Positions 41,021 through 57,721 of a stretch of 64,000 nucleotides of DNA are shown one piece after another (positions within the stretch are counted from its first letter, which is position 1; each line of letters starts with the position of its first letter). The stretch is from Pseudomonadota bacterium (lineage in GTDB: Bacteria > Bdellovibrionota > Bdellovibrionia > Bdellovibrionales > Bdellovibrionaceae): assembly GCA_041178425.1 (NCBI GenBank), contig JBEGVH010000009.1:209250-273249 (forward strand), read 5' to 3'. The notes under the pieces were generated by a model. It worked only from the letters and a program-made list of their open reading frames with translations. It searched no databases and was not told the origin of the DNA. A program made the position numbers and the translations under genes.

Positions 41021-43129
41021 TTATCGATAACAAATAACTTCGACCGAACGACTTCCAAAAGAACCTCCGTTCGGCGAAATCTCGGTGACGTAACCCGATC
41101 CATTAGTGTAATCGGCTTGTCGCCGGCAAAAACGTCGACCACAGGTATTCGTAAAACGTAATGATTGATGAACATTAATATTAGGATAACTTGCTTCTTT
41201 AGTTGGGTTCGCACCGTCGATACAGGCAATAGAGACTTCGTCGATGGTGGTTTGAATTCTCCTGACCACTGAGCCCGCTTCAAGCTGATTAAACACTTCT
41301 TCATTGTAGCAATTAATAAACGTTTTACCATTGCCTCGTTCGACCATTCGACCAGAGGTGTAGCCCTTCCCTAAGCCTCGACAGTATCGACTCGAGCACG
41401 TAAAAATCCAACGAACTTGCTTTAAGTCGCGTTCGACTCCGTTACTGGATTCTGGCAGACTTTGTCCAACAGGTACTACCGAATCGGCACACAAAGTATC
41501 AAGTCGACCATCTTCTACTTCTTCCGCCACTATTGCTGGAGGCAGAGAGAGAAGTTTTTGCCGACAGCTATCGGTGATGTCTGGTGGCGGTGAAGTTTTT
41601 CGGCACTCAAGCACTAAACCAATGTTACGTTCGACAACTCGACCTTCGATATACCCTTTTAAGGGGTTCAACATTTTGCAGTACCGATTTCCACACGTAT
41701 TAAAGAATCGAATCAGTTTGGGATCATCAGTCGGCATATTATCAGCCAACGTTGGCGTCACTGGGTCGATACAGGCTAGAGCCAAAGCATCATCGCTATT
41801 GAGAGATTCGGTTGAAAAATAGGAGCGACTTGCTTTCAAAACCTCCTCTTGAGTACAGGCCGAGATACATTTTTTTGCAGCAGCATCATAACGATAACCA
41901 CTACCACACTGACTACAACTCAAAACTCCAGAAGAACTTAAAATGAGCTCTTGGCCACTGGGGCAGGAACAACCATAGGCCGTATACGTTTGACCTGCAA
42001 TAGGACAAGAGCATCCCGAAGTGTTGGTTGAGCAACTGCCCGTCACCCATCGCAAAGGATTCACCTCGCAAGTAATTGAACACGTGGTGGTCGTCGTACC
42101 CGAGACCCCAGAGCCTTGGCACTGAGCAATGCTGCTCGTCGGCGGTTTGAGTTGTGGATCACAAGTCGTTACCTTACACCCCCCCGCACCGTCATCGACG
42201 GTCCCTGTCGCGCACTCGCAAAGACCCGAGGTAGAATTAAGAACCTTGCCGCTAGGGCATGCACATCCTGAGTAGTTCCACGAGGTGCAATTAAATCGTT
42301 CCCAATTATAAGTGTTGTTATTGCAGTTGACTCCACAAGTCCGGGTGGCTGTTCCTGCGCCATAGGAGCAAGCCTTTGATTCGGAGCTTGATGGTTTTTT
42401 GGCGGGGTCACAACTGTTGGCCACACACGTTTTTGTTGTTGAATCATGATGTTGCCAGTCGGGACAAGTACCACAGCTCGAACCAATAGGAAATTTGTTT
42501 GGCGGACACTGACATTGCCCACTAGAATCCATCGATTGCCCTGCCAGAGCGCAAGTACACTGCGAATAATTCCAAGGCGACCAAGTGCCGTATTCCCACT
42601 GGGTATTTAACGTATTGCAAATCTCGGTTCTCGCACGAGTCGCAAAATGAATTCCATCCGCGCAAATCTTCCGCTCGGTTGTACTCTGCCGCTGCGTTAG
42701 ATCACACTTAGGACTTTCGCAGCGACCGTTGATGAGTGTTTTTCCAGCAGGACACTGACAGATACCCGTCAGTGGATCAGGAATAAGAAGATTATTTGCA
42801 CAGCCACAATCTGAAATTGGAGAGGACTGCCACTCCCCTGGTGTCCATTGTCCATTTACGCAATAATACTCTCGCGTTCGTTTAACTGAATTTTTTAGAG
42901 GTCGGTTTCCACCATCAACAGGACACAAGATTAATTCTGAATCAAAGGGTTTTTTGCCGCTGCAAACCAAGCTACTAGGGCTACTCGAGCCCCCCCCGGG
43001 CGACAAAGATTGCAGGTTTGTTCGATCCACTGCGAACTGCACTTCGGAGCAATTTTGAAAGAGATTAAAGACAACCACTAATACAATGATTGGAAAAAGC
43101 ACTGCGATCTTCAATGAATACTCCCCCAT
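41021..43129 (-). CDS. Cysteine-rich surface (lipo)protein with TSP1/EGF-like repeats and three C-terminal TCxxR(Y/F)C repeats
   Basis: FQNCS lipobox-like N-terminus; repeated W..W..C.C units; NTCGNRYC, FTCSSRYC and NTCGRRFC; GAGGAG SD. Confidence 0.8.
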   Translation of the reverse strand: MGEYSLKIAVLFPIIVLVVVFNLFQNCSEVQFAVDRTNLQSLSPGGGSSSPSSLVCSGKKPFDSELILCPVDGGNRPLKNSVKRTREYYCVNGQWTPGEWQSSPISDCGCANNLLIPDPLTGICQCPAGKTLINGRCESPKCDLTQRQSTTERKICADGIHFATRARTEICNTLNTQWEYGTWSPWNYSQCTCALAGQSMDSSGQCQCPPNKFPIGSSCGTCPDWQHHDSTTKTCVANSCDPAKKPSSSESKACSYGAGTATRTCGVNCNNNTYNWERFNCTSWNYSGCACPSGKVLNSTSGLCECATGTVDDGAGGCKVTTCDPQLKPPTSSIAQCQGSGVSGTTTTTCSITCEVNPLRWVTGSCSTNTSGCSCPIAGQTYTAYGCSCPSGQELILSSSGVLSCSQCGSGYRYDAAAKKCISACTQEEVLKASRSYFSTESLNSDDALALACIDPVTPTLADNMPTDDPKLIRFFNTCGNRYCKMLNPLKGYIEGRVVERNIGLVLECRKTSPPPDITDSCRQKLLSLPPAIVAEEVEDGRLDTLCADSVVPVGQSLPESSNGVERDLKQVRWIFTCSSRYCRGLGKGYTSGRMVERGNGKTFINCYNEEVFNQLEAGSVVRRIQTTIDEVSIACIDGANPTKEASYPNINVHQSLRFTNTCGRRFCRRQADYTNGSGYVTEISPNGGSFGSRSVEVICYR

Positions 43130-46278: not shown

Positions 46279-46305
46279 TCAATCTATTCCGATAAATACC
46301 GATAA
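46279..46305 (+). promoter_or_regulatory. Putative sigma-28 (FliA) promoter with a duplicated -10 box
   Basis: TCAA-N15-ACCGATAA, plus a second TCCGATAA 10 nt upstream. Confidence 0.45.
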
Positions 46306-46319
46306 GATAAAGTGAGCAG

Positions 46320-48462
46320 TTGGGGGCTTTTATCTTAAGAACCGTGAGGGAATTAAATTATCATTTTAGAGATGATGGGGCGATACCCATTACAGGGAAT
46401 CGTTGGAATCGTTCTGTAAAAATAAACACAAAACGTTTAGTTTCTCATTCTGCTGGCGTATCTATTATCGAACTCATGCTCATGCTAGGGGTCATGGCGA
46501 TCGTTTCCCTGGGTGTTGCTTCCATCTTCAACTTTGGCTTTGAAGGCCTTCGGCATATGCAAGGAGGTACTGAGACTTTATCGCTTGAACAATTGATCGA
46601 AAGAACGCTTGCTCGCCCCCCCCTCTGTTAGCGAAAAGCAAAGTAATATTTCTAGAGTTTGTCCCGTAGGTCTCAGGGATATAGGTAACTACAGCGGTAC
46701 AAAAAAAGATTTAAATGGAATCTACGACGCTGGAGGATCAAATGTCGTTGCTTCCATCAACGTATTTGAGCTTTCACTTTCGACCTATGTGGACCAAGCC
46801 ATTGTTGGTCCTATTTCTTTTTCAGCCCCTGATGAGGCTCAACCAAATAGCCCTATGACTCCCTTTAACTACTGGCTTACAAACATTGTTGTAGTAGGCA
46901 CAAAAAATAATGCGAACAAGTTGGGAGGAGATACTTTTCGTGGCCGGGTTGGCGTTGGTTTAATTACTAAGGCAGACGGAACCCTTTATGATTGTAAGCT
47001 CAACACTCTCGATGAACGCAAAATTTGCGAACTCCTGGGAGGAACTCTCGCTCGAGATCCTATTCTGCTCCCACGATGTGTATTTAACCGACTTCCAGTT
47101 GTTCAAGACTGGAGCTTGATGCCAGCCAATAATACTCCCCCGTTTATTAATGGCGATACTTATGTTCAACGAATCCTGTTTGCGGGAGACGCTGCTACTT
47201 TGAATACTAGTTTTACAAACCGAACCAATTCGCCTAGACCTGTTGGCTTAGCCGTTGCCACTCCTGACAAAAAACTCCTTGCCGTTGGCGAAGGAGATGA
47301 CGGCAGCTTTGGATTTACTAGTTACAAAAACGGTTATCGAACTTGGTCGCTATTTCCTGATCCAAATACCGGCAATGGCTTATTCCCCAACGGCAAAATG
47401 GCTCTCAGAACCTATGGAGATACGCCATTTGTATTTGGCACAGGCTCTAGTACCTCAGCCGTCATCTCACCTCGGAGAAAACTTTTTGCCGTCAACGGCG
47501 CCATGACATCTACAGATCTTGGAAAAGCCAGATCCTACCTCAACGGCCAAAGCAGCACAAACCCACTCAGGGAAAATCTGGGTCTGCTCGTTATTCATGG
47601 TGATGACTCTAAGACCTTTCTTGGCTCAGCGGCGGGAGACAGCGCTTACGGTGTCTTCACGGTTTCTCCCACACAACCTTTGGGTGGCATTTTTTATGTT
47701 GATGCTTCGAGTCCTTACTGGAATGGCAGTCCCGCAGGGGGCATGGTCATGAAAGCCTATAACGGTAATGACCTCATCTTTATGAACAAAAATTCTTCTC
47801 CCTGCTTAGCCGACTGTGTTCCTCTCCTTATTAGAGGTGATACAGGGAACGCAAATATCGGCGGCGGTTTTACGATAAGGCATAACGCTAAACTCTATGT
47901 TAACGCAAAAGATAGCCTTATCGGAAATCCAGGGCTAAAGGTTTTAGGCCAGAGCACGTTTGACGGCGAAGTGAGATTTTCATCGATCAAAGAATCAATC
48001 TTTGATGGTGTTATGAGAGTCGCTGGTACGATTCATAACCCCAACACCGCAAGAATTGTTGTCGGGGATTCGGATGAACGGCTAAAAACAGACATTCAAC
48101 CTATTACTAATGCCCTCGAGAAACTTTTAAAAATAAATGGTGTTTATTACCGCTGGAAAAACAAAAAATGGGGGCCCCATCGCCAAATGGGTGTGATTGC
48201 CCAAACCGTGGAGAAGGTATTCCCTGAGGCCGTCTCTACGTCGCCATCTGGAACTAAGGCTGTTGCCTACCAAAACCTAGTGGCACCTCTCATTGAAGCC
48301 ATAAAATCTCAACAAAAAGAAATTGAAAGTCTCCAGCATGAGCATGATTCTTTAGCCGAAGAGCTAAATCAAATGCTCGAACGTCTGTGTCTTGATGCTC
48401 CGGATGAAGAGCTCTGTCGCCTAACAAGTGAAATTTCAAAAGAAGAATTGAGAACCCAATGA
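46320..48462 (+). pseudogene. Prepilin-like / fibre / peptidase-S74 protein 1, frameshifted at a C8 tract (phase-variable gene, pseudogene or sequencing error)
   Basis: ORF 46320-46631 holds G|VSIIELMLMLG, and ORF 46609-48462 holds the rest including SDERLK. Removing one C from 46616-46623 joins them into a protein collinear with the two downstream paralogs. Confidence 0.8.
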
Positions 48463-50492
48463 ACAATTTGACTTGGTTCTCTAAAATCAAATTGACGGCC
48501 GCAGACTTTAAAATAAAAGGCGATGAAGCTGGTGCCACTTTAATCGAGATGATGTTAATAGCGGGCCTCATTGGAATTCTAGCGACCGGAATTGCCGCGA
48601 TCTCAAATAATGGGTTTCAGAATTTGCGTAATATTCGTATCGGTAACGATCTTCAGAGCATTGAGAACTTAGTATCAACCGCACTTAAGAGGCCTGCCAC
48701 TCCCAATGAACTGCGACTCGGTGAACGAATTTGTCGCAAGAGCCTATCGAACCTCAATAAATATAATGGCCTTAAAATCACAGGTATAACCATCAATGGG
48801 CCAAATGGAGAGGAATTACTCGCTCCATTCAGAAAAAACTCATACACTGCAAAAGTCGAAATATCTGATGCTGTCATCGGGCCTATTCCAGCGATTTATC
48901 CAGACTCAGGTGCTAATGGAAAGCTAACAAATTTTAATGTTTTCATTACACACTTGCTGATCATTGGCGAAAAAGATGTTAACGATCAAAGTGTCGGAAG
49001 TAAAATAACCCGAACGCGTATTCCAATCGCCATCGTGACTTACCCTAATGGAGATCTCTACGATTGTGCTGTTAATCCAACGGATGACAAAAAAACATGT
49101 TTAATGCTTGGTGGTCGATTCACCGAGGATCCCTTATTAACTCCTCGTTGTTTGATGACCAAGCTTCCGATCGCAGATGATTGGGGCGCGATTCCTACAG
49201 CTTCAACATTTACTCTCGGAGATTTATTTGTTCAAAACGTAATCGGAATCGGAGTTAAAGATGAAATCACTAGAACGCGTCAGCTTTGGAAAGTACAACG
49301 AGGTGTTGCGCTAGGAGGTGCCGCGAATCAGGGAATGGCCTTTGGTGAACTAGAGAATGGAAACATTGGTATTGCTGCAAACCTCGATGGCTCTCGCTTT
49401 TATTCCTTATTGACCAAAGAGGATAAAAAAAATCTTTATAGCCAAGGTTATTTTTCATTAGATACCTATGGAGATCGAGCCTGGTATTTCGATGCCCTCA
49501 AGGGGACCTCTGGCAATAGCTTTGATATCGGCATGGGCCTGAATGGTTCCCGTAAGTTCTTCTTTTCTGAGGGTGCAATGGTTTCTGCCCGTCTCACAGA
49601 AGGCTTACAGTACCTTAATGGCACGCAAATGTTTCCTCTTGGTATCGATCGTGGCTTTATTGCCCATAATAGTGATAATAGAAAAACCTTACTCGGACGC
49701 TCTCTGGATGGGGCCTCAGGATTCTTTTTTGCTAACGATACCAACGTTTTCGGATCAACCAAAACTCTCGCAGGCGCCTATTGGACGAGTAACTACCCAG
49801 GTGGGGCCATGGTTTTCAAGGCCTATGGAGGTAGTGACCTCATTTTTCAGGTGGCACAACAACAAAATAATTGCAGCAACTGCACCGCGATGGTCATGAA
49901 GGGGCTAACCGGAGATATTGGAATTGGAACTGGATTTAGTCGACCAGAAGCGAAACTTCATGTCAGTGCAGGCAGTGCTTTTTCCCCCGCCTTGAGGGTG
50001 GTAGGTCGCACGGAGTTTCCGGGAGAAACAAGGATTATTGGCAACTCCTATTTGAATCGCTCCCTGGAGGTCAGAGGAACATTGCGTTCCAACCAGACGA
50101 TCTATGCGGCCTCCGATGAGAACCTAAAAACCGACATCGAACCTATCACCAACGCGCTCGAGCATATTCTTAAAATCAATGGAGTTTACTTTCGCTGGAA
50201 AAATGAACCCCCAAATTCATCTCCTACCATTGGTTTAATTGCCCAAAATGTTGAAAGGTCATTCCCCGAAGTTGTTTTTGATACAGAAAAAGGAACGAAG
50301 GCTGTGGCCTACGCTAATCTTGTCGCGCCTTTGATTGAAGCTATTCGCGAGCACCAAATTCAAATTAACGAATTAAAAAAGAAGAGAGATCAACTGCATC
50401 TAGGCGTTGAACGACTAAGAGCAAAACTCTGTGAAAAAAAATCTCAAGACATCATTGTGAAAAGAAACTGTAAGAAAGGAGGATCGCTGTGA
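48459..50492 (+). CDS. Prepilin-like / fibre / peptidase-S74 protein 2
   Basis: G|ATLIEMMLIAGLIG N-terminus; GDIGIGT..P.AKLHV fibre motif; SDENLKTDI...GLIAQNVE..FPEVV...VAYANLVAPLIEAI and a coiled coil. Confidence 0.88.
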   Translation: MNNLTWFSKIKLTAADFKIKGDEAGATLIEMMLIAGLIGILATGIAAISNNGFQNLRNIRIGNDLQSIENLVSTALKRPATPNELRLGERICRKSLSNLNKYNGLKITGITINGPNGEELLAPFRKNSYTAKVEISDAVIGPIPAIYPDSGANGKLTNFNVFITHLLIIGEKDVNDQSVGSKITRTRIPIAIVTYPNGDLYDCAVNPTDDKKTCLMLGGRFTEDPLLTPRCLMTKLPIADDWGAIPTASTFTLGDLFVQNVIGIGVKDEITRTRQLWKVQRGVALGGAANQGMAFGELENGNIGIAANLDGSRFYSLLTKEDKKNLYSQGYFSLDTYGDRAWYFDALKGTSGNSFDIGMGLNGSRKFFFSEGAMVSARLTEGLQYLNGTQMFPLGIDRGFIAHNSDNRKTLLGRSLDGASGFFFANDTNVFGSTKTLAGAYWTSNYPGGAMVFKAYGGSDLIFQVAQQQNNCSNCTAMVMKGLTGDIGIGTGFSRPEAKLHVSAGSAFSPALRVVGRTEFPGETRIIGNSYLNRSLEVRGTLRSNQTIYAASDENLKTDIEPITNALEHILKINGVYFRWKNEPPNSSPTIGLIAQNVERSFPEVVFDTEKGTKAVAYANLVAPLIEAIREHQIQINELKKKRDQLHLGVERLRAKLCEKKSQDIIVKRNCKKGGSL

Positions 50493-52540
50493 TTGCCAAA
50501 GACCCAGTATCGAAAAAAAATGTATCATTATCAAACGAACCCTCTTTATCGGGCTCTGAAACTGGAATTGCATTAATACAGATCACAATGATAATTGGGA
50601 TAATGTCTATCATTGCAATCTCAATCGCGACACTTTCAAACTCAAGTTTACAGGGTTTAAAACATATGCGAATGGGAAACGATCTTGACGCTTTGAAGGG
50701 TCTCATTAAACTCGCGCTAACTCGCCCTCAAACACCTCAGGAGGCACCTAAGAACGGTCCCCCATTTGATCCAGGCACTAAGGTTTGCTTGGCCACCCTC
50801 CCTGATCTAAAAAACTACAGATACGATGGTAAAGAATATCCTGCATCTCCCGATCAAAGTCTCCGAGTGGTTGGGCCCAGCGGAAATAACCTTCTTAGAT
50901 CGTTAATTGATTTACAAGCCAATAACAACCGACCCACTGATTATTCAATCAAAGCCCGATTGGTAAAAACGGTGGCCGCAAGTACACCCATTATTTATCC
51001 CGACCAAACGGGCTCTCCCAAAACCTATAATCTTTGGAAAACCAATATACTTATCGTCGGTGAAAAAGTAGCTGGTGATGACCAAGGGGGTAAAATCCTT
51101 CGAGGAGAAATACCTCTTGGCCTCATCACAGATCCTGCAACGGGTTACATTTTTGACTGTATCGTCGACCCAACAGACTACGAACAAATCTGCCGCACAC
51201 TGGGTGGCAAGTATGATATCACTAAAACTCCCAATTGCCTCCTGACCAGGGCGGCTGTTGCAGGCAGTTCTCCCCCACTCACGGAATGGGACAAACTTCC
51301 GAATGCACAAGGGTTTACAAATGGTGATCTGTTCACTGAAAACAGGATCCTCATTGGAAACACAGAACGCATTGATTGGTCATTAAACAATTGGCAAGCC
51401 GCGCGGTCCTTGTTAATCGGTGGCACCCAAAAAAACGGTATGACCCTCGGTCAAAATAAATCGAATGCCGTTGGAATATCTACAGACTTAAATAACTCCT
51501 CCATTTTTGCTATTTTTTCGGACATTGACTCCTCCAACGGAATTTTTCCGGCTGGCAAGGCGATCGTTCGAACATACGGCAGCCGACCATTTGTATTTTC
51601 TAACGTTTATCCATTGCAAAAACCCAATATTGATTCAGACCATTTGATCATGGATCCTACTAAAAAAATGCTCATTAATGATGGCCTTTTACTCGCTACT
51701 AATCCCGATAACAACCCAGGCCTGATGAATGGAAGCGAATCAATTCCACTCCTTGATAACGTAGGACTTGCAGCGGCCTATAGTGACGGACGACGAATCG
51801 CACTTGGCACAAATCAATCTTCGGATATGGGGCTTTGGAGCCGCAAATCAGGCCAAACCGACGGAGCTATTTATTTTTCGAGAACCCATAGTGCCATCGA
51901 TAGTAGTTTTGGAGGTTTTGTTTTTAAACATTACAAGGGGGGAGACCTTGTCTTTGTTCGAAAGCAATCTACCGATGGAGTTGCTATGACGATAAAAGGC
52001 AACAGTAACATTGGCATTAATGAATCTAATCCGCAGGCCCGTTTGCATATTAATGGAGTTGGCTCACTTGGTCTTCGCGTTGATGGCACCTCCACAATCC
52101 AAGGAGAGTTAATTGTTAATGGACCCACGTTTGTAGAAAACGACACCCGCGTCACGCGTGATATTTGGGGCAACCAAACGGTCTCTGCAGATTCTGACTT
52201 TCGCCTCAAAACGGCGATCAAACCAATTGAGGGAGCTTTAGAAAAGATCTTAAAACTAAACGGAGTTTATTTTCGATGGAAGAATCCCCTGCAGAGCCAA
52301 AAACGACAAATTGGCGTTATCGCTCAAAATGTCGAAGAGGTTTTTCCAGAACTTGTCATAAACAATCGAGATGGAACTAAATCGGTTGCCTACCAAAACT
52401 TAGTGGCTCCGATAATAGAAGCAATTCACACTCAAGATTCACTTCTCAGGGAAATTCGAGATAAAAATACCAAACTCAATGTAAAACTCGAAAAAATTCT
52501 AAAATGTCTAAACAAAGATGATACCACAAATAAAAAGTAA
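50489..52540 (+). CDS. Prepilin-like / fibre / peptidase-S74 protein 3
   Basis: G|IALIQITMIIGIM N-terminus; NIGINESNPQARLHI; SDFRLKTAI...GVIAQNVEEVFPELV. Confidence 0.88.
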   Translation: MIAKDPVSKKNVSLSNEPSLSGSETGIALIQITMIIGIMSIIAISIATLSNSSLQGLKHMRMGNDLDALKGLIKLALTRPQTPQEAPKNGPPFDPGTKVCLATLPDLKNYRYDGKEYPASPDQSLRVVGPSGNNLLRSLIDLQANNNRPTDYSIKARLVKTVAASTPIIYPDQTGSPKTYNLWKTNILIVGEKVAGDDQGGKILRGEIPLGLITDPATGYIFDCIVDPTDYEQICRTLGGKYDITKTPNCLLTRAAVAGSSPPLTEWDKLPNAQGFTNGDLFTENRILIGNTERIDWSLNNWQAARSLLIGGTQKNGMTLGQNKSNAVGISTDLNNSSIFAIFSDIDSSNGIFPAGKAIVRTYGSRPFVFSNVYPLQKPNIDSDHLIMDPTKKMLINDGLLLATNPDNNPGLMNGSESIPLLDNVGLAAAYSDGRRIALGTNQSSDMGLWSRKSGQTDGAIYFSRTHSAIDSSFGGFVFKHYKGGDLVFVRKQSTDGVAMTIKGNSNIGINESNPQARLHINGVGSLGLRVDGTSTIQGELIVNGPTFVENDTRVTRDIWGNQTVSADSDFRLKTAIKPIEGALEKILKLNGVYFRWKNPLQSQKRQIGVIAQNVEEVFPELVINNRDGTKSVAYQNLVAPIIEAIHTQDSLLREIRDKNTKLNVKLEKILKCLNKDDTTNKK

Positions 52541-52614: not shown

Positions 52615-53568
52615 CTAGTTCGGATCGACCCTAAATGATCTATTTGCAGGCGTAACAAGTAAAACCCCTTTTAAATTTCTTACTGCCCCCGCCTGAACAT
52701 ACAGCGTATAGTTGTGACCATTGCACATGATATCTTGAAGCTTTGGTGCGCAGTGGGGAGTCGCTCGAACTGTCACCTTGTTGCCTGAGGCACTACACAC
52801 CCCGACTGGAACGTTGTACCCCACGGAGGTGTTGCGAAAATAAATCTTTGAACAATCAGCAATGGTGACGGGCTCATTAAAGGTAATCACGAAACCAGTG
52901 CCGCTCACAACGCCCTGATTTTGATAATAGAGCACCGAACCAATGCTTGGTCCCGGCACGGCATCAATCAAAGTGGACCGTGGTGGTGGTGGTGGCGGAC
53001 AAACCTTCGTGCAAGCTTGGGTTCTATTTGCAGGTCTTGGGCCGCAACAGTCGCCATTAGGAGCATTACAGTATGACGTTAAGATCTCAGTTCCGTTCTG
53101 CACACCATAACCACAAGTAGCACTGCAAGGACCAGCATTCCATGACCAGGCACAACAGCCTCCGTATGTTTGATTTGAAAGACACGCCCAAGTTCTTAGT
53201 TGGCCTACTTTATGGGGAATTAATCTTAAATCCACTGTCGTTCGGTTATCTGCAGGCCCCCATGAATACGTTTTTCGCAGTTGATTTATGTTAACGGTAT
53301 TCATTTTTCCAAAACAGCCTCGTTCTTCCCACCAGATAGTTTTATAAGGGAGGCTATTAATGGTGTAATCATTTGTTATTGCGGGATTATTGCAAGTCCA
53401 ATAGGTACAATTGGTGCCGCAGGAAGCCGTGCATCGATCATGGGGCTGTGGACAGTTATTGTTCATATTAGCCTGTGCCCGGGCATAGGGGCACATCGCC
53501 CAAGTGAGGCCAACAAATATCGATACAAAGAAGAATTTAAATCGCAAACCCCGACCCCTCGGAGCCAT
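52615..53568 (-). CDS. Secreted Cys-rich protein with a thrombospondin type-1-like repeat and a C-terminal Ig-like domain
   Basis: Signal peptide ending ARA; WSWNAGPCSATCGYGVQ; poly-Pro linker; ITFNEPV...YTLYVQAGAVRNLKG. Confidence 0.75.
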   Translation of the reverse strand: MAPRGRGLRFKFFFVSIFVGLTWAMCPYARAQANMNNNCPQPHDRCTASCGTNCTYWTCNNPAITNDYTINSLPYKTIWWEERGCFGKMNTVNINQLRKTYSWGPADNRTTVDLRLIPHKVGQLRTWACLSNQTYGGCCAWSWNAGPCSATCGYGVQNGTEILTSYCNAPNGDCCGPRPANRTQACTKVCPPPPPPRSTLIDAVPGPSIGSVLYYQNQGVVSGTGFVITFNEPVTIADCSKIYFRNTSVGYNVPVGVCSASGNKVTVRATPHCAPKLQDIMCNGHNYTLYVQAGAVRNLKGVLLVTPANRSFRVDPN

Positions 53569-53917
53569 GGACTTCTCCCCTTTACGAACCAGTATTTTCA
53601 TACTTATCAGAATCTCATTGAAGTCACTAATTCTGCAAATCATTTTATAGGCAGTCTCAATTTGAGGTTCGCTGAAGACTGAAAAATGTGAACATTCGAG
53701 CAGCTACCTTAACACAAATTCTTGCGCCGTTGGCACCAATTCTGAGACCCTGTGATGCTCGTTACGGCCGCACTCAACGCTAATCAATTAAGATAAGAGC
53801 TTCTTGACTCGCCCCCGGCACTTCAGTTAGCTAAAGGCTCCTAAAAAATCAGAATAAAATGAGAGTTCGCATGAGGGTGCTCGACTGTCTATTCTGAGTA
53901 ACCGTGGAGAAAAAAGT

Positions 53918-56149: not shown

Positions 56150-57721
56150 TCAGAGAGGACTACAAAAAATCTTTAAATAATTCTCATAACAATTGGCTCC
56201 TCCACCGGAGTTTGATGACATTTGAACATTGATCGCCTTTGGGTAATAGCCGGCAATAGGAGTGCCCTCAACATGACAGCGTACGCTTTCAGCGCACGAT
56301 TCCGAACCCTTGGCAAAATTGAATTCTGTTGTTGGTGAATGTCGATTGGACTGCACAAGTCGCACACCTATACTTCTTTTAGAAGTCGCCGTACATTTAT
56401 GATCTGGGATGTGGAGCTCTCCACCTTTTGCTATAAATTTGGAAATGTAACATCCGTCATCACAAACACCTACTAAGAATCTAGAAATTTCCTCACCATC
56501 CACAGCCTTGTCTCCACCAAAGACTTTATCGTGGCATGTTGCAGCTCTACCCACTGGCTTCCACGTTGGAGGATTAGTTGCTGATCCATCGCCTCCACCA
56601 CAAATTTCCATCTGGTGAGTCACCTTATTGTAGCGAATCGCCCCTTCTGCATCAGTATTACAATTTACAGAATTTGTGTTTCCCACGATGACTTCACCAC
56701 TCACATCGAGTTTAGATCGTGGTGAATCTTTTCCAACTCCAACGTTTCCCGCGTTAGTAATCATAAGTCTTACCTTACTATTATTATCTGGCTCACTCGC
56801 GGTCATTGCCGTGTGCAATGCAATAGTACCAGGAGATTGGAGTCGAAGATTATGTCCGGGGTTTCCAACTCCGATACTCTCATAAGGATATGCCATATCA
56901 ACCCCTGTGCTTGAATGGCCAATAATGACACCATTTATCAAGGCACCTTCCCTGCTGTATAACCCCATGTTGGGTGTTGCCGCCTCCATATTTTCTCGAT
57001 CATTGAAATTATTGGCTATGCCTAACTTTTTCAGTAAACAGGGGGGTGATTTGCTCGGCTCGTATTGACCGCCTAAGACTTCACACATTGCCTTATAATC
57101 TTGAGAGGAAGTCGCACAATCATAAAAAGTGTTTGGACTTCCAGGCAGTGGTCCCGTTATTATCGAGATTGGAATTCTAGCCCTAATACTAATAGTTCCA
57201 GCAGGATCGTCAGATCTAATTCCATTAAGAGAAATAATAACTGAATTTTTATTGAAAGCTTTTAGAGTGCTATCCCTGCGATCAACAAGTTGTACGCTCG
57301 TGCCGGGCGCTGCGGGTGAAAACAACTTAGCTTCAATTCTGTAGCCACCGAGGGTATTTAGTAGAGTTTTTCCGTTCATCTGTATGTCACTCAAATTGAC
57401 CTTGGCGACTGGAGGATCTTGAAAGGGAAAATTATAGGTCGTAAGGGGTGCCCCGTTCACTTGAAGGGCGCTTCGACAAACCTCCGGCTCCGCAAGTGAC
57501 ATTTGTACGAGGTTTTGCACAGTTTGAAGATCGTTGCTCATTCGAACTTGCTGAAAACTGTTATTGCTGATCTTAAAAATCTCGGCGATGACCAAAATGA
57601 GAATTCCTAAAATGGCAGCACCGATGGTTACACTCGTTAAGGAGAATCCAAATTCATTTTTGAGTCGGCCTCGAAAAAGGTTCAGAAAACTAAGATCTCG
57701 TGATTCTTTTGAAGTCGCCAT
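56150..57721 (-). CDS. Prepilin-like adhesin, paralog of the 46-52 kb fibres but lacking S74
   Basis: G|FSLTSVTIGAAILG; shared YDC-x9-C-x2-LGG...PPC motif; GNVGVG..SP.SKLDVSG; C-x4-EGAIRYN..W linker followed by a Cys-rich C-terminal domain. Confidence 0.82.
   Translation of the reverse strand: MATSKESRDLSFLNLFRGRLKNEFGFSLTSVTIGAAILGILILVIAEIFKISNNSFQQVRMSNDLQTVQNLVQMSLAEPEVCRSALQVNGAPLTTYNFPFQDPPVAKVNLSDIQMNGKTLLNTLGGYRIEAKLFSPAAPGTSVQLVDRRDSTLKAFNKNSVIISLNGIRSDDPAGTISIRARIPISIITGPLPGSPNTFYDCATSSQDYKAMCEVLGGQYEPSKSPPCLLKKLGIANNFNDRENMEAATPNMGLYSREGALINGVIIGHSSTGVDMAYPYESIGVGNPGHNLRLQSPGTIALHTAMTASEPDNNSKVRLMITNAGNVGVGKDSPRSKLDVSGEVIVGNTNSVNCNTDAEGAIRYNKVTHQMEICGGGDGSATNPPTWKPVGRAATCHDKVFGGDKAVDGEEISRFLVGVCDDGCYISKFIAKGGELHIPDHKCTATSKRSIGVRLVQSNRHSPTTEFNFAKGSESCAESVRCHVEGTPIAGYYPKAINVQMSSNSGGGANCYENYLKIFCSPL

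Follow-up and report, generated by a model that had tools for sequence, protein, structure and literature searches.

Tip proteins of type IV filaments have been described in several forms. CofB of CFA/III (colonization factor antigen III) of enterotoxigenic Escherichia coli (ETEC) and TcpB of the toxin-coregulated pilus (TCP) of Vibrio cholerae are homotrimeric tip pilins that start the filament from its tip (PMC6048534, PMC5207764). GspI/J/K and PilV/W/X are dissimilar subunits held together by their pilin domains, with a hydrophobic residue 5, and a 3'-terminal gene without Glu5 is regarded as marking a tip complex's first subunit (PMC5207764, PMC10191384). Bdellovibrio also produces mosaic adhesive trimer (MAT) fibres; a signal peptide followed by a conserved beta domain of 130 aa is common to all 21, and for Bd3182 self-cleavage has been shown and the tip is 40 Å wide (PMC10769870). 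In the predator Myxococcus, the Kil system (Tad) has interchangeable Tips, proposed to suit different prey (PMC12075869). Proteins joining a pilin N-terminal motif to Peptidase S74 (IPR012902-IPR030392) were catalogued in a 2021 survey of modular pilins, where they number 29 and are among the most frequent architectures; the survey interprets S74 as 'peptidase activity', with nothing tested and no discussion of trimer folding, tandem triples, or switching (PMC8179133). A literature search that covered subscription journals and supplements in part found nothing beyond that survey, neither experimental work on this fusion nor an S74 heterotrimer.

Three coupled paralogous genes of this type were found in a 64,000-nucleotide stretch of DNA (hereafter, the window) from a member of the family Bdellovibrionaceae (assembly GCA_041178425.1, contig JBEGVH010000009.1, positions 209,250 to 273,249). 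They are open reading frames (ORFs) of the plus strand at 46320-48462, 48459-50492, and 50489-52540, with gene 1 broken into two frames. Our preferred reading, to which we assign a probability of roughly 0.45, is that each gene encodes a modular minor pilin of the CofB/TcpB type that forms a self-trimer folded by its S74 domain, and that the trio provides alternative tips. The core that this reading shares with a heterotrimeric one, namely an S74-folded trimeric tip on a pilin base, is considerably more secure and may be called probable. The parts of the locus are as follows:

46320..46631, plus strand: gene 1, 5' piece; 103 aa from TTG or 95 aa from GTG 46344
46616..46623, plus strand: homopolymer of eight C (C8), the gene 1 frameshift site
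46609..48462, plus strand: gene 1, 3' piece; 617 aa, with the remaining pilin domain and its Cys motif, beta-fibre, S74 domain (48070-48234), and coiled coil
48459..48462, plus strand: ATGA stop/start overlap, gene 1 to gene 2
48459..50492, plus strand: gene 2; 677 aa, G25/ATLIE (Glu5), pilin-like domain at residues ~26-235, beta-fibre at 236-551
50112-50276, plus strand: gene 2 S74 domain, from Ser552, followed by a coiled coil
50489..50492, plus strand: GTGA stop/start overlap, gene 2 to gene 3
50489..52540, plus strand: gene 3; 683 aa, G26/IALIQ (Gln5), pilin-like domain, beta-fibre
52193-52357, plus strand: gene 3 S74 domain, from Ser569

The trio resembles CofB and TcpB in its N-terminal pilin domain, C-terminal beta region, and predicted homotrimer (gene 2), and by analogy would work most like CofB with a MAT/phage-type end. 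CofB, however, ends in an H-type lectin domain, has no chaperone that cleaves itself, and is the only minor pilin in a type IVb pilus (T4bP) operon, whereas the window proteins end in S74, belong to a set of four S74 paralogs in the genome, and lie in no T4bP operon and beside no machinery. With the MATs they share the beta-fibre plus S74 (SDxxxK) and the mosaic exchange of parts suggested by the homologue P0003 (see below), but they carry a prepilin leader and pilin domain, and the profile of the MAT-like N-terminal domain hits 10 ORFs of the genome and none of the trio. Like GspI/J/K and PilV/W/X, they are encoded by adjacent minor pilin genes, the last without Glu5; unlike those subunits, they are full-length paralogs with a polar Gln5, no family match over the cut-off, and no linkage to genes of a type II secretion system (T2SS) or type IVa pilus (T4aP). 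Alternative tips would be a point in common with the Kil Tips, but the latter belong to Tad-type complexes, for which the abstract reports no phage-type S74 fibre. The pilin motif and S74 are also common to the trio and the IPR012902-IPR030392 proteins; the trio falls below the N_methyl cut-off, and the survey would therefore have missed it. An earlier note on this DNA had considered prepilin+S74 proteins undescribed, which holds for an experimental account but not for the architecture, already catalogued with 29 proteins (PMC8179133).

Architecture of the three proteins

Pfam Peptidase_S74 (PF13884) was detected above its cut-off in all three genes (E 4e-16 to 4e-20), and the SDxxLK motif with its catalytic Ser and Lys was intact in each. 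A DC..C..LGG..PxC cysteine motif was also common to the three; the Cys and S/D/K positions were invariant across 25 fusions. Overall pairwise identity within the trio was 32-35%; S74 reached 63-67%, against 29-37% for the pilin part and 28-32% for the fibre. The fibres of genes 1, 2, and 3 were 331, 321, and 319 residues long. In the model of gene 2, the beta-rich middle is poorly ordered as a monomer and is followed by the S74 helix bundle, with a C-terminal helix at 618-660. The S74 domain matched MyRF ICA (7dc3) with Z 8.8 and a root-mean-square deviation of 2.4 over 121 aligned residues, and further matches to MyRF and phage chaperones had Z 7.2 and 6.9.

Three copies of gene 2 residues 236-565 were predicted to form a homotrimer, with a score of 0.80 against 0.00 for the best of three controls; the runs showed at least 86% contact agreement and a predicted local distance difference test (pLDDT) of at least 73. 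In a calibration only roughly suited to this task, 20 of 30 solved homo-pairs attained the mark applied, as did 1 of 23 single chains. A search of the ESM Atlas with the fibre region returned only unnamed, mostly viral clusters at a template-modelling (TM) score <0.4. A loose capping-loop pattern of the MAT type was found in genes 2 and 3 and not in gene 1.

The leaders of genes 1 to 3 read G/VSIIE, G/ATLIE, and G/IALIQ (the slash marks the putative cleavage site), with Gly at -1 and with Glu at residue 5 in genes 1 and 2 and Gln in gene 3. Each is followed by a single hydrophobic stretch (Kyte-Doolittle 2.2-2.5 over 19 aa), the sole strongly hydrophobic one of its chain. In gene 1 the leader is long, the Gly codon lies at 46455-46457, and the stop of the 5' piece falls just past the C run. 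No NCBIfam family was over its cut-off for the trio. A PilFind-like pattern fits genes 1 and 2 and fails for gene 3 at the real cleavage site, which lacks Glu5.

The gene 2 model contains a predicted 50-residue N-terminal helix (28-77) and an antiparallel sheet, and the pilin domain folded alone also gave a long helix on an antiparallel sheet (pLDDT 82.6). In a structure search with the gene 2 model, 15 of the 50 listed rows were type IV pilins or pseudopilins aligned over residues ~26-208, each of them weak (Z 3.8-5.1, below the level that the tool calls clear). PilD of B. bacteriovorus also processes Tad pilins (bioRxiv 10.64898/2026.07.08.737194), so that the leader cannot assign the filament type (T4aP, T2SS, or Tad).

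These results bear out most of what the earlier note had read from the DNA, namely the coupling of three paralogs by the overlaps at 48459-48462 and 50489-50492, their shared Cys motif, the E5/E5/Q5 pattern, and an S74 chaperone with SDxxLK in each gene, which the Pfam matches, the intact motif, and the C-terminal helix of the gene 2 model corroborate. Two of its claims stand in part: three fusion genes were described, which applies to genes 2 and 3 but not to gene 1 as a single ORF, and of the class III signal-like N-termini the Gly site and hydrophobic helix were found but not an N_methyl match over the cut-off.

Gene number and residue 5 across the phylum

A profile of the pilin domain retrieved 107 cluster representatives; among the 69 scanned, 22 carried S74, 8 of which were also over the N_methyl cut-off. 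Array size was assessed in 118 loci, hand-picked by ORF length from phylum genome searches, of which 39 contained a pilin+S74 gene. Where at least 2 kb was available on both sides (n=28), 27 loci had a single pilin+S74 gene and one had a tandem triple. Loci with short flanks (n=11) comprised 9 with one gene and 2 with two genes, 2.7 and 3.2 kb apart. In L115 and L139, the latter counted among the 27, a second S74 ORF is cut at the contig end, and these may be arrays. One gene per locus is thus the norm, and the homotrimer would accordingly be the norm as well. The tandem triple (L062:5201-10998 in genome G193) lies between a PAS kinase gene and mutS and has D/E/E at residue 5. Its members form their own clade (support 100), are 41-46% identical to one another, and match the window trio mainly over the C-terminal S74-containing part; on these sequence relationships it is an independent expansion and not orthologous to the trio.

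At E 1e-60, none of the 181 further family genomes searched yielded the window subfamily. Four genomes of the same genus had one S74 match each, that of G003 being a solitary pilin+S74 gene, and comparison of the flanking genes in these four yielded only distant homologues. No genomic context of close relatives was found in the metagenome or genome contigs scanned. Orthologues were identified for gene 1 (P0109, 52%) and gene 2 (P0002, 53%); since the longest contig for both has 14,793 bases, the gene 1/gene 2 pair is probably old and linked in a relative. No orthologue of gene 3 was found among 8000 candidates scored.

Residue 5 was Glu in 36 of 43 fusion ORFs, and a residue other than Glu occurred in 6 of 36 single-gene loci. 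Retention of Glu5 would be expected only if the subunits dock into a filament. When large pilin-domain genes with or without S74 were considered together, 99 singles, 7 tight pairs, and 4 tight triples were counted. The residues at position 5 were E/E/Q in the window, E/E/G in L102, E/E/V in L155, I/E/E in L053 (one member of which has 224 aa), and D/E/E in L062; L108 was left out because no N-terminus was found for its first member. L107, which has one gap of 668 bases, reads E/E/E, and in L059 four genes with Gln5 are spread over both strands. Exactly one non-acidic residue 5 occurred in 4 of the 5 triples (P 0.014 against 7/71 non-Glu5 in solitary genes), in 3 of 4 without the window (P 0.046), and in 4 of 6 when L107 was added (P 0.033); these statistics are post hoc, from hand-picked loci, with two cleavage sites assigned by pattern only. 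The triples L102:6184-12155 (G509), L155:5690-10316 (G395), and L053:1882-6184 (G046) are without S74 and match Pfam N_methyl only; as judged from their sequences, they are candidates for undescribed three-subunit tips.

Gene 1 frameshift, paralogs and host genome

The gene 1 pieces at 46320-46631 and 46609-48462 are in different frames, with the eight C at 46616-46623 as their junction, and removal of one C brings both into frame. The paralogs of gene 1 have RP at this site, without a C run. Four metagenome runs were compared at the locus, runs with small shares being left out: C8 was found in single contigs of X1 (depth 25) and X2 (depth 14), both possible sources of the window DNA, one C fewer (C7) was found in one contig of X3 (depth 6), which belongs to another study, and X5 was without coverage of the C run. 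An assembly error is unlikely, as the separate assemblies of X1 and X2 both have C8, with the proviso that both may be the source of the DNA. In the relative, the orthologue P0109 is unbroken (697 aa), with 61% identity to the 5' piece and 52% over 617 aa to the 3' piece. Because C7 occurs in an independent metagenome and the relative's orthologue is unbroken, gene 1 has a natural ON (C7) and OFF (C8) allele. The contig data are compatible with reversible switching as well as with a fixed strain mutation at the C run. Runs of at least eight C or G number 18 in the 3.06-Mb genome.

Upstream of gene 2 there is only a weak Shine-Dalgarno sequence, while gene 3 has its own AGGAGG. The break could shut off only gene 1, or could in addition reduce gene 2; given its position in the first gene and the weak ribosome-binding site of gene 2, the frameshift is indecisive between homo- and heterotrimer. 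No RNA data set was among the runs listed for the locus. Four coding differences were recorded in X3/X5, at 47437, 48856, 51488, and 52111; all change an amino acid (G277S in the gene 1 3' piece, at depth 2, V133A, L334I, and L541F) and are too few to interpret. Scans for sigma-70 promoters and terminators at the locus gave results at chance level. Two CCGATAA words, 10 bases apart, lie just upstream of gene 1 (46289-46306); we take them to resemble a sigma-28 -10 box. This word was not enriched genome-wide (470 occurrences, without a -35 bias).

Two further members of the family are present in the genome:

G000:C26:35741-38257 (L010:7739-10240), minus strand: fourth prepilin+S74 paralog, solitary, among unrelated genes
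56150..57721 of the window, minus strand: fifth paralog, 523 aa, same pilin-domain subfamily, G/FSLTS (Ser5), without S74, outside the operon

The solitary fourth copy passes TIGR02532. Its fibre (450) is ~130 residues longer than those of the trio, its S74 is 49-51% identical to theirs, and it groups with P0003, P0006, and P0016. P0003 is 57% identical to the fourth copy in front, while its S74 is closer to the trio (63-67% vs 52%), a mosaic that, from sequence comparison, is a sign of module exchange. The fifth paralog has one fibre motif and a Cys-rich C-terminus, is 48% identical over its length to P0009 (Glu5), and is interpreted from its sequence as a tip of this family that lacks S74.

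The genome (3.06 Mb, 100% complete) contains 11 S74 genes, 10 proteins with a MAT-like N-terminal domain, one of which weakly matches the solved Bdellovibrio fibre Bd2133, and a delta-type GspC; on these three grounds the host is probably a Bdellovibrio-like predator. The best runs carrying the locus were freshwater and lagoon metagenomes. Two A24 peptidases, several extension/retraction ATPases, and four secretins are encoded in the genome. The machinery genes include pilM-Q, next to which an A24 peptidase is encoded, and gspC-F; a true gspG-H-I-J-K cluster lies apart from these on contig C9. None of these lies beside the trio, which has no adjoining pilus assembly genes and is surrounded in the window by unrelated host genes. 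A search for PilY1 gave no match in the genome or in the controls and is therefore uninformative. A 744-aa secretion ATPase is encoded beside a secretin (L170:2696-4930 in G000:C30, minus strand), the size expected for the TadZ-TadA hybrid of B. bacteriovorus. On the contig of the fourth copy, a 673-aa frame ends in S74 (G000:C26:82327-84345, minus strand), either an odd fusion or an assembly join, with a start that presumably resembles lipoprotein signal peptidase. In the window, a 702-aa exported Cys-rich repeat protein without a Pfam match is encoded on the minus strand at 41021-43129; near its residue 49 there is a further C8/G8 run, which is in frame. Convergent with the trio, a 342-aa Cys-rich protein is encoded on the minus strand at 52615-53643, with a weak C-terminal Big_5 match (E 0.005, below the cut-off).

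Mechanism, competing explanations and meaning

Under the preferred reading, the prepilin would enter the inner membrane by its single hydrophobic helix and be cut after Gly by a prepilin peptidase. In the periplasm, the pilin domain would form disulfides, and three S74 domains would register three chains and fold the triple beta-fibre. The S74 domains would then cleave themselves off at the SDxxLK serine, as for Bd3182 (PMC10769870), and the three pilin helices may start a type IV filament as the CofB trimer does (PMC6048534). The filament would carry the fibre outward, with its new C-terminal end as the part that binds, prey or surface glycans being the most likely ligands. A tip 40 Å wide, as in Bd3182, should pass a pilus secretin. 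The usual and presumably ancestral state would be one gene giving a homotrimer; this lineage would have triplicated the gene, with the solitary fourth copy in addition, into a repertoire of alternative tips each able to self-trimerise, of which gene 1 would be turned off by a one-base slip in the C run in some strains or samples.

Several observations weigh against this reading. The coupling of the genes by overlaps suits a fixed complex, gene 3 stands last and, as in tip complexes, is without Glu5, the one further S74 array found with tight coupling is a triple too, and one non-Glu5 member in three recurs in other large-pilin triples. The pass of the homotrimer prediction concerns gene 2 only and may reflect likeness to solved triple beta-fibres. 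As to the pilin base, Pfam N_methyl was below the cut-off in gene 2 (E 0.3) and not found in genes 1 and 3, position +1 of gene 2 is Ala, the leader of gene 1 measures 38-46 aa, and fold searches with the pilin domain alone were filled by long helices without a clear match. As to switching, the C7 allele is represented by a single contig (depth 6), and for phase variation a tract of seven or eight C is short.

The first group of these points leads to a tentative alternative, which we regard as a serious but minority possibility, in which the three chains form one 1:1:1 heterotrimeric tip whose Gln5 chain (gene 3) caps like GspK/PilX. The subunits would have specialised after the triplication, their three chains would be brought into register by mutually compatible S74 domains, and the C run would switch the whole tip through loss of one subunit and of coupling to gene 2, which has only a weak ribosome-binding site of its own. 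The ATGA/GTGA coupling is in line with this, as is the E/E/Q order, the non-Glu5 gene being last in the manner of a first subunit (PMC5207764); so are the tight triples L102, L155, L053, and L062 with one non-Glu5 member each, the probable co-occurrence of the gene 1 and gene 2 orthologues in a relative, and the greater likeness within the trio, in fibre length (331/321/319) and S74 identity (63-67%), than to the solitary copy (450 and 49-51%). That S74 type and fibre length are also present, however, in P0003 (326) and P0008, and may be ancestral and not co-evolved. Most pilin+S74 genes are single, gene 2 alone is predicted to trimerise, none of the 8000 candidates scored was a gene 3 orthologue, and no S74 heterotrimer was found in the partly covered literature. 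Large-pilin arrays also occur as pairs (7 against 4 triples). In the G193 triple the deviating residue 5 is Asp, which is not neutral, and it belongs to the first gene. For two cleavage sites in the other triples, the assignment is by pattern only. In its fullest form, a 1:1:1 S74-folded fibre capping the type IV filament of the predator, in which a CofB-like homotrimer is turning GspIJK-like under a C-run phase switch, this explanation is unlikely as a whole. The earlier note had proposed a co-folded heterotrimer and had named free variation of gene number among relatives as contrary evidence. As a rule for the architecture, an obligate heterotrimer is contradicted by gene numbers of one, two, or three, with 27 of 28 informative loci single, as well as by the predicted trimer of gene 2 alone; the note's proposal of a pilin-like base with an S74-folded trimeric fibre, probably at the tip of a type IV filament, is supported.

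Two further explanations touch the pilin base and the frameshift. The fibres could be anchored in the inner membrane or delivered by a T2SS and never cap a pilus, the helix serving only as an anchor or export tag. The leaders below the N_methyl and TIGR02532 cut-offs, the weak pilin-fold matches, and the lack of a pilus assembly gene beside the operon are what this would predict; homologues with canonical GFSLVE-type motifs (8 of 22 S74-bearing matches over the N_methyl cut-off), the solitary paralog passing TIGR02532, and Glu5 in 36 of 43 fusion ORFs make it improbable. The trio could also be a decaying duplication in which the frameshift is plain gene loss under relaxed selection, without a joint role. 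Gene 1 is broken in the genome and two runs, 4 of 4 coding differences among samples change an amino acid (too few for a test), and the subfamily was not found at E 1e-60 in the other family genomes (n=181). Yet the paralogs, at only 32-35% identity, have kept their catalytic motifs, cysteines, and overlaps intact, full-length orthologues of genes 1 and 2 exist at ~52% in another organism, and an in-frame allele exists today, so that decay seems very improbable. The locus is not regarded as a prophage remnant: none of the phage records spans 80% of gene 2, their matches begin past residue 380, and the neighbours are host genes.

What the locus adds to the described systems is a coupled E/E/Q triple, a natural C7/C8 allele, a homotrimer prediction, and a census of array size. 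On how Bdellovibrio-like predators first grip their prey, the MAT study itself asks about a link between fibres and type IV pili (PMC10769870). Pilin+S74 fusions, which are common in the phylum, represent a direct physical link, a phage-type receptor-binding fibre built on a retractile filament. If the 1:1:1 switchable tip were true, the binding end would be asymmetric, and such triples would have arisen more than once in the phylum. Besides its natural ON/OFF allele, the locus is a clean case in which to ask if heterotrimers can be folded by S74 chaperones; the answer would be relevant to the evolution of multi-subunit pilus tips and to the design of asymmetric fibre adhesins.

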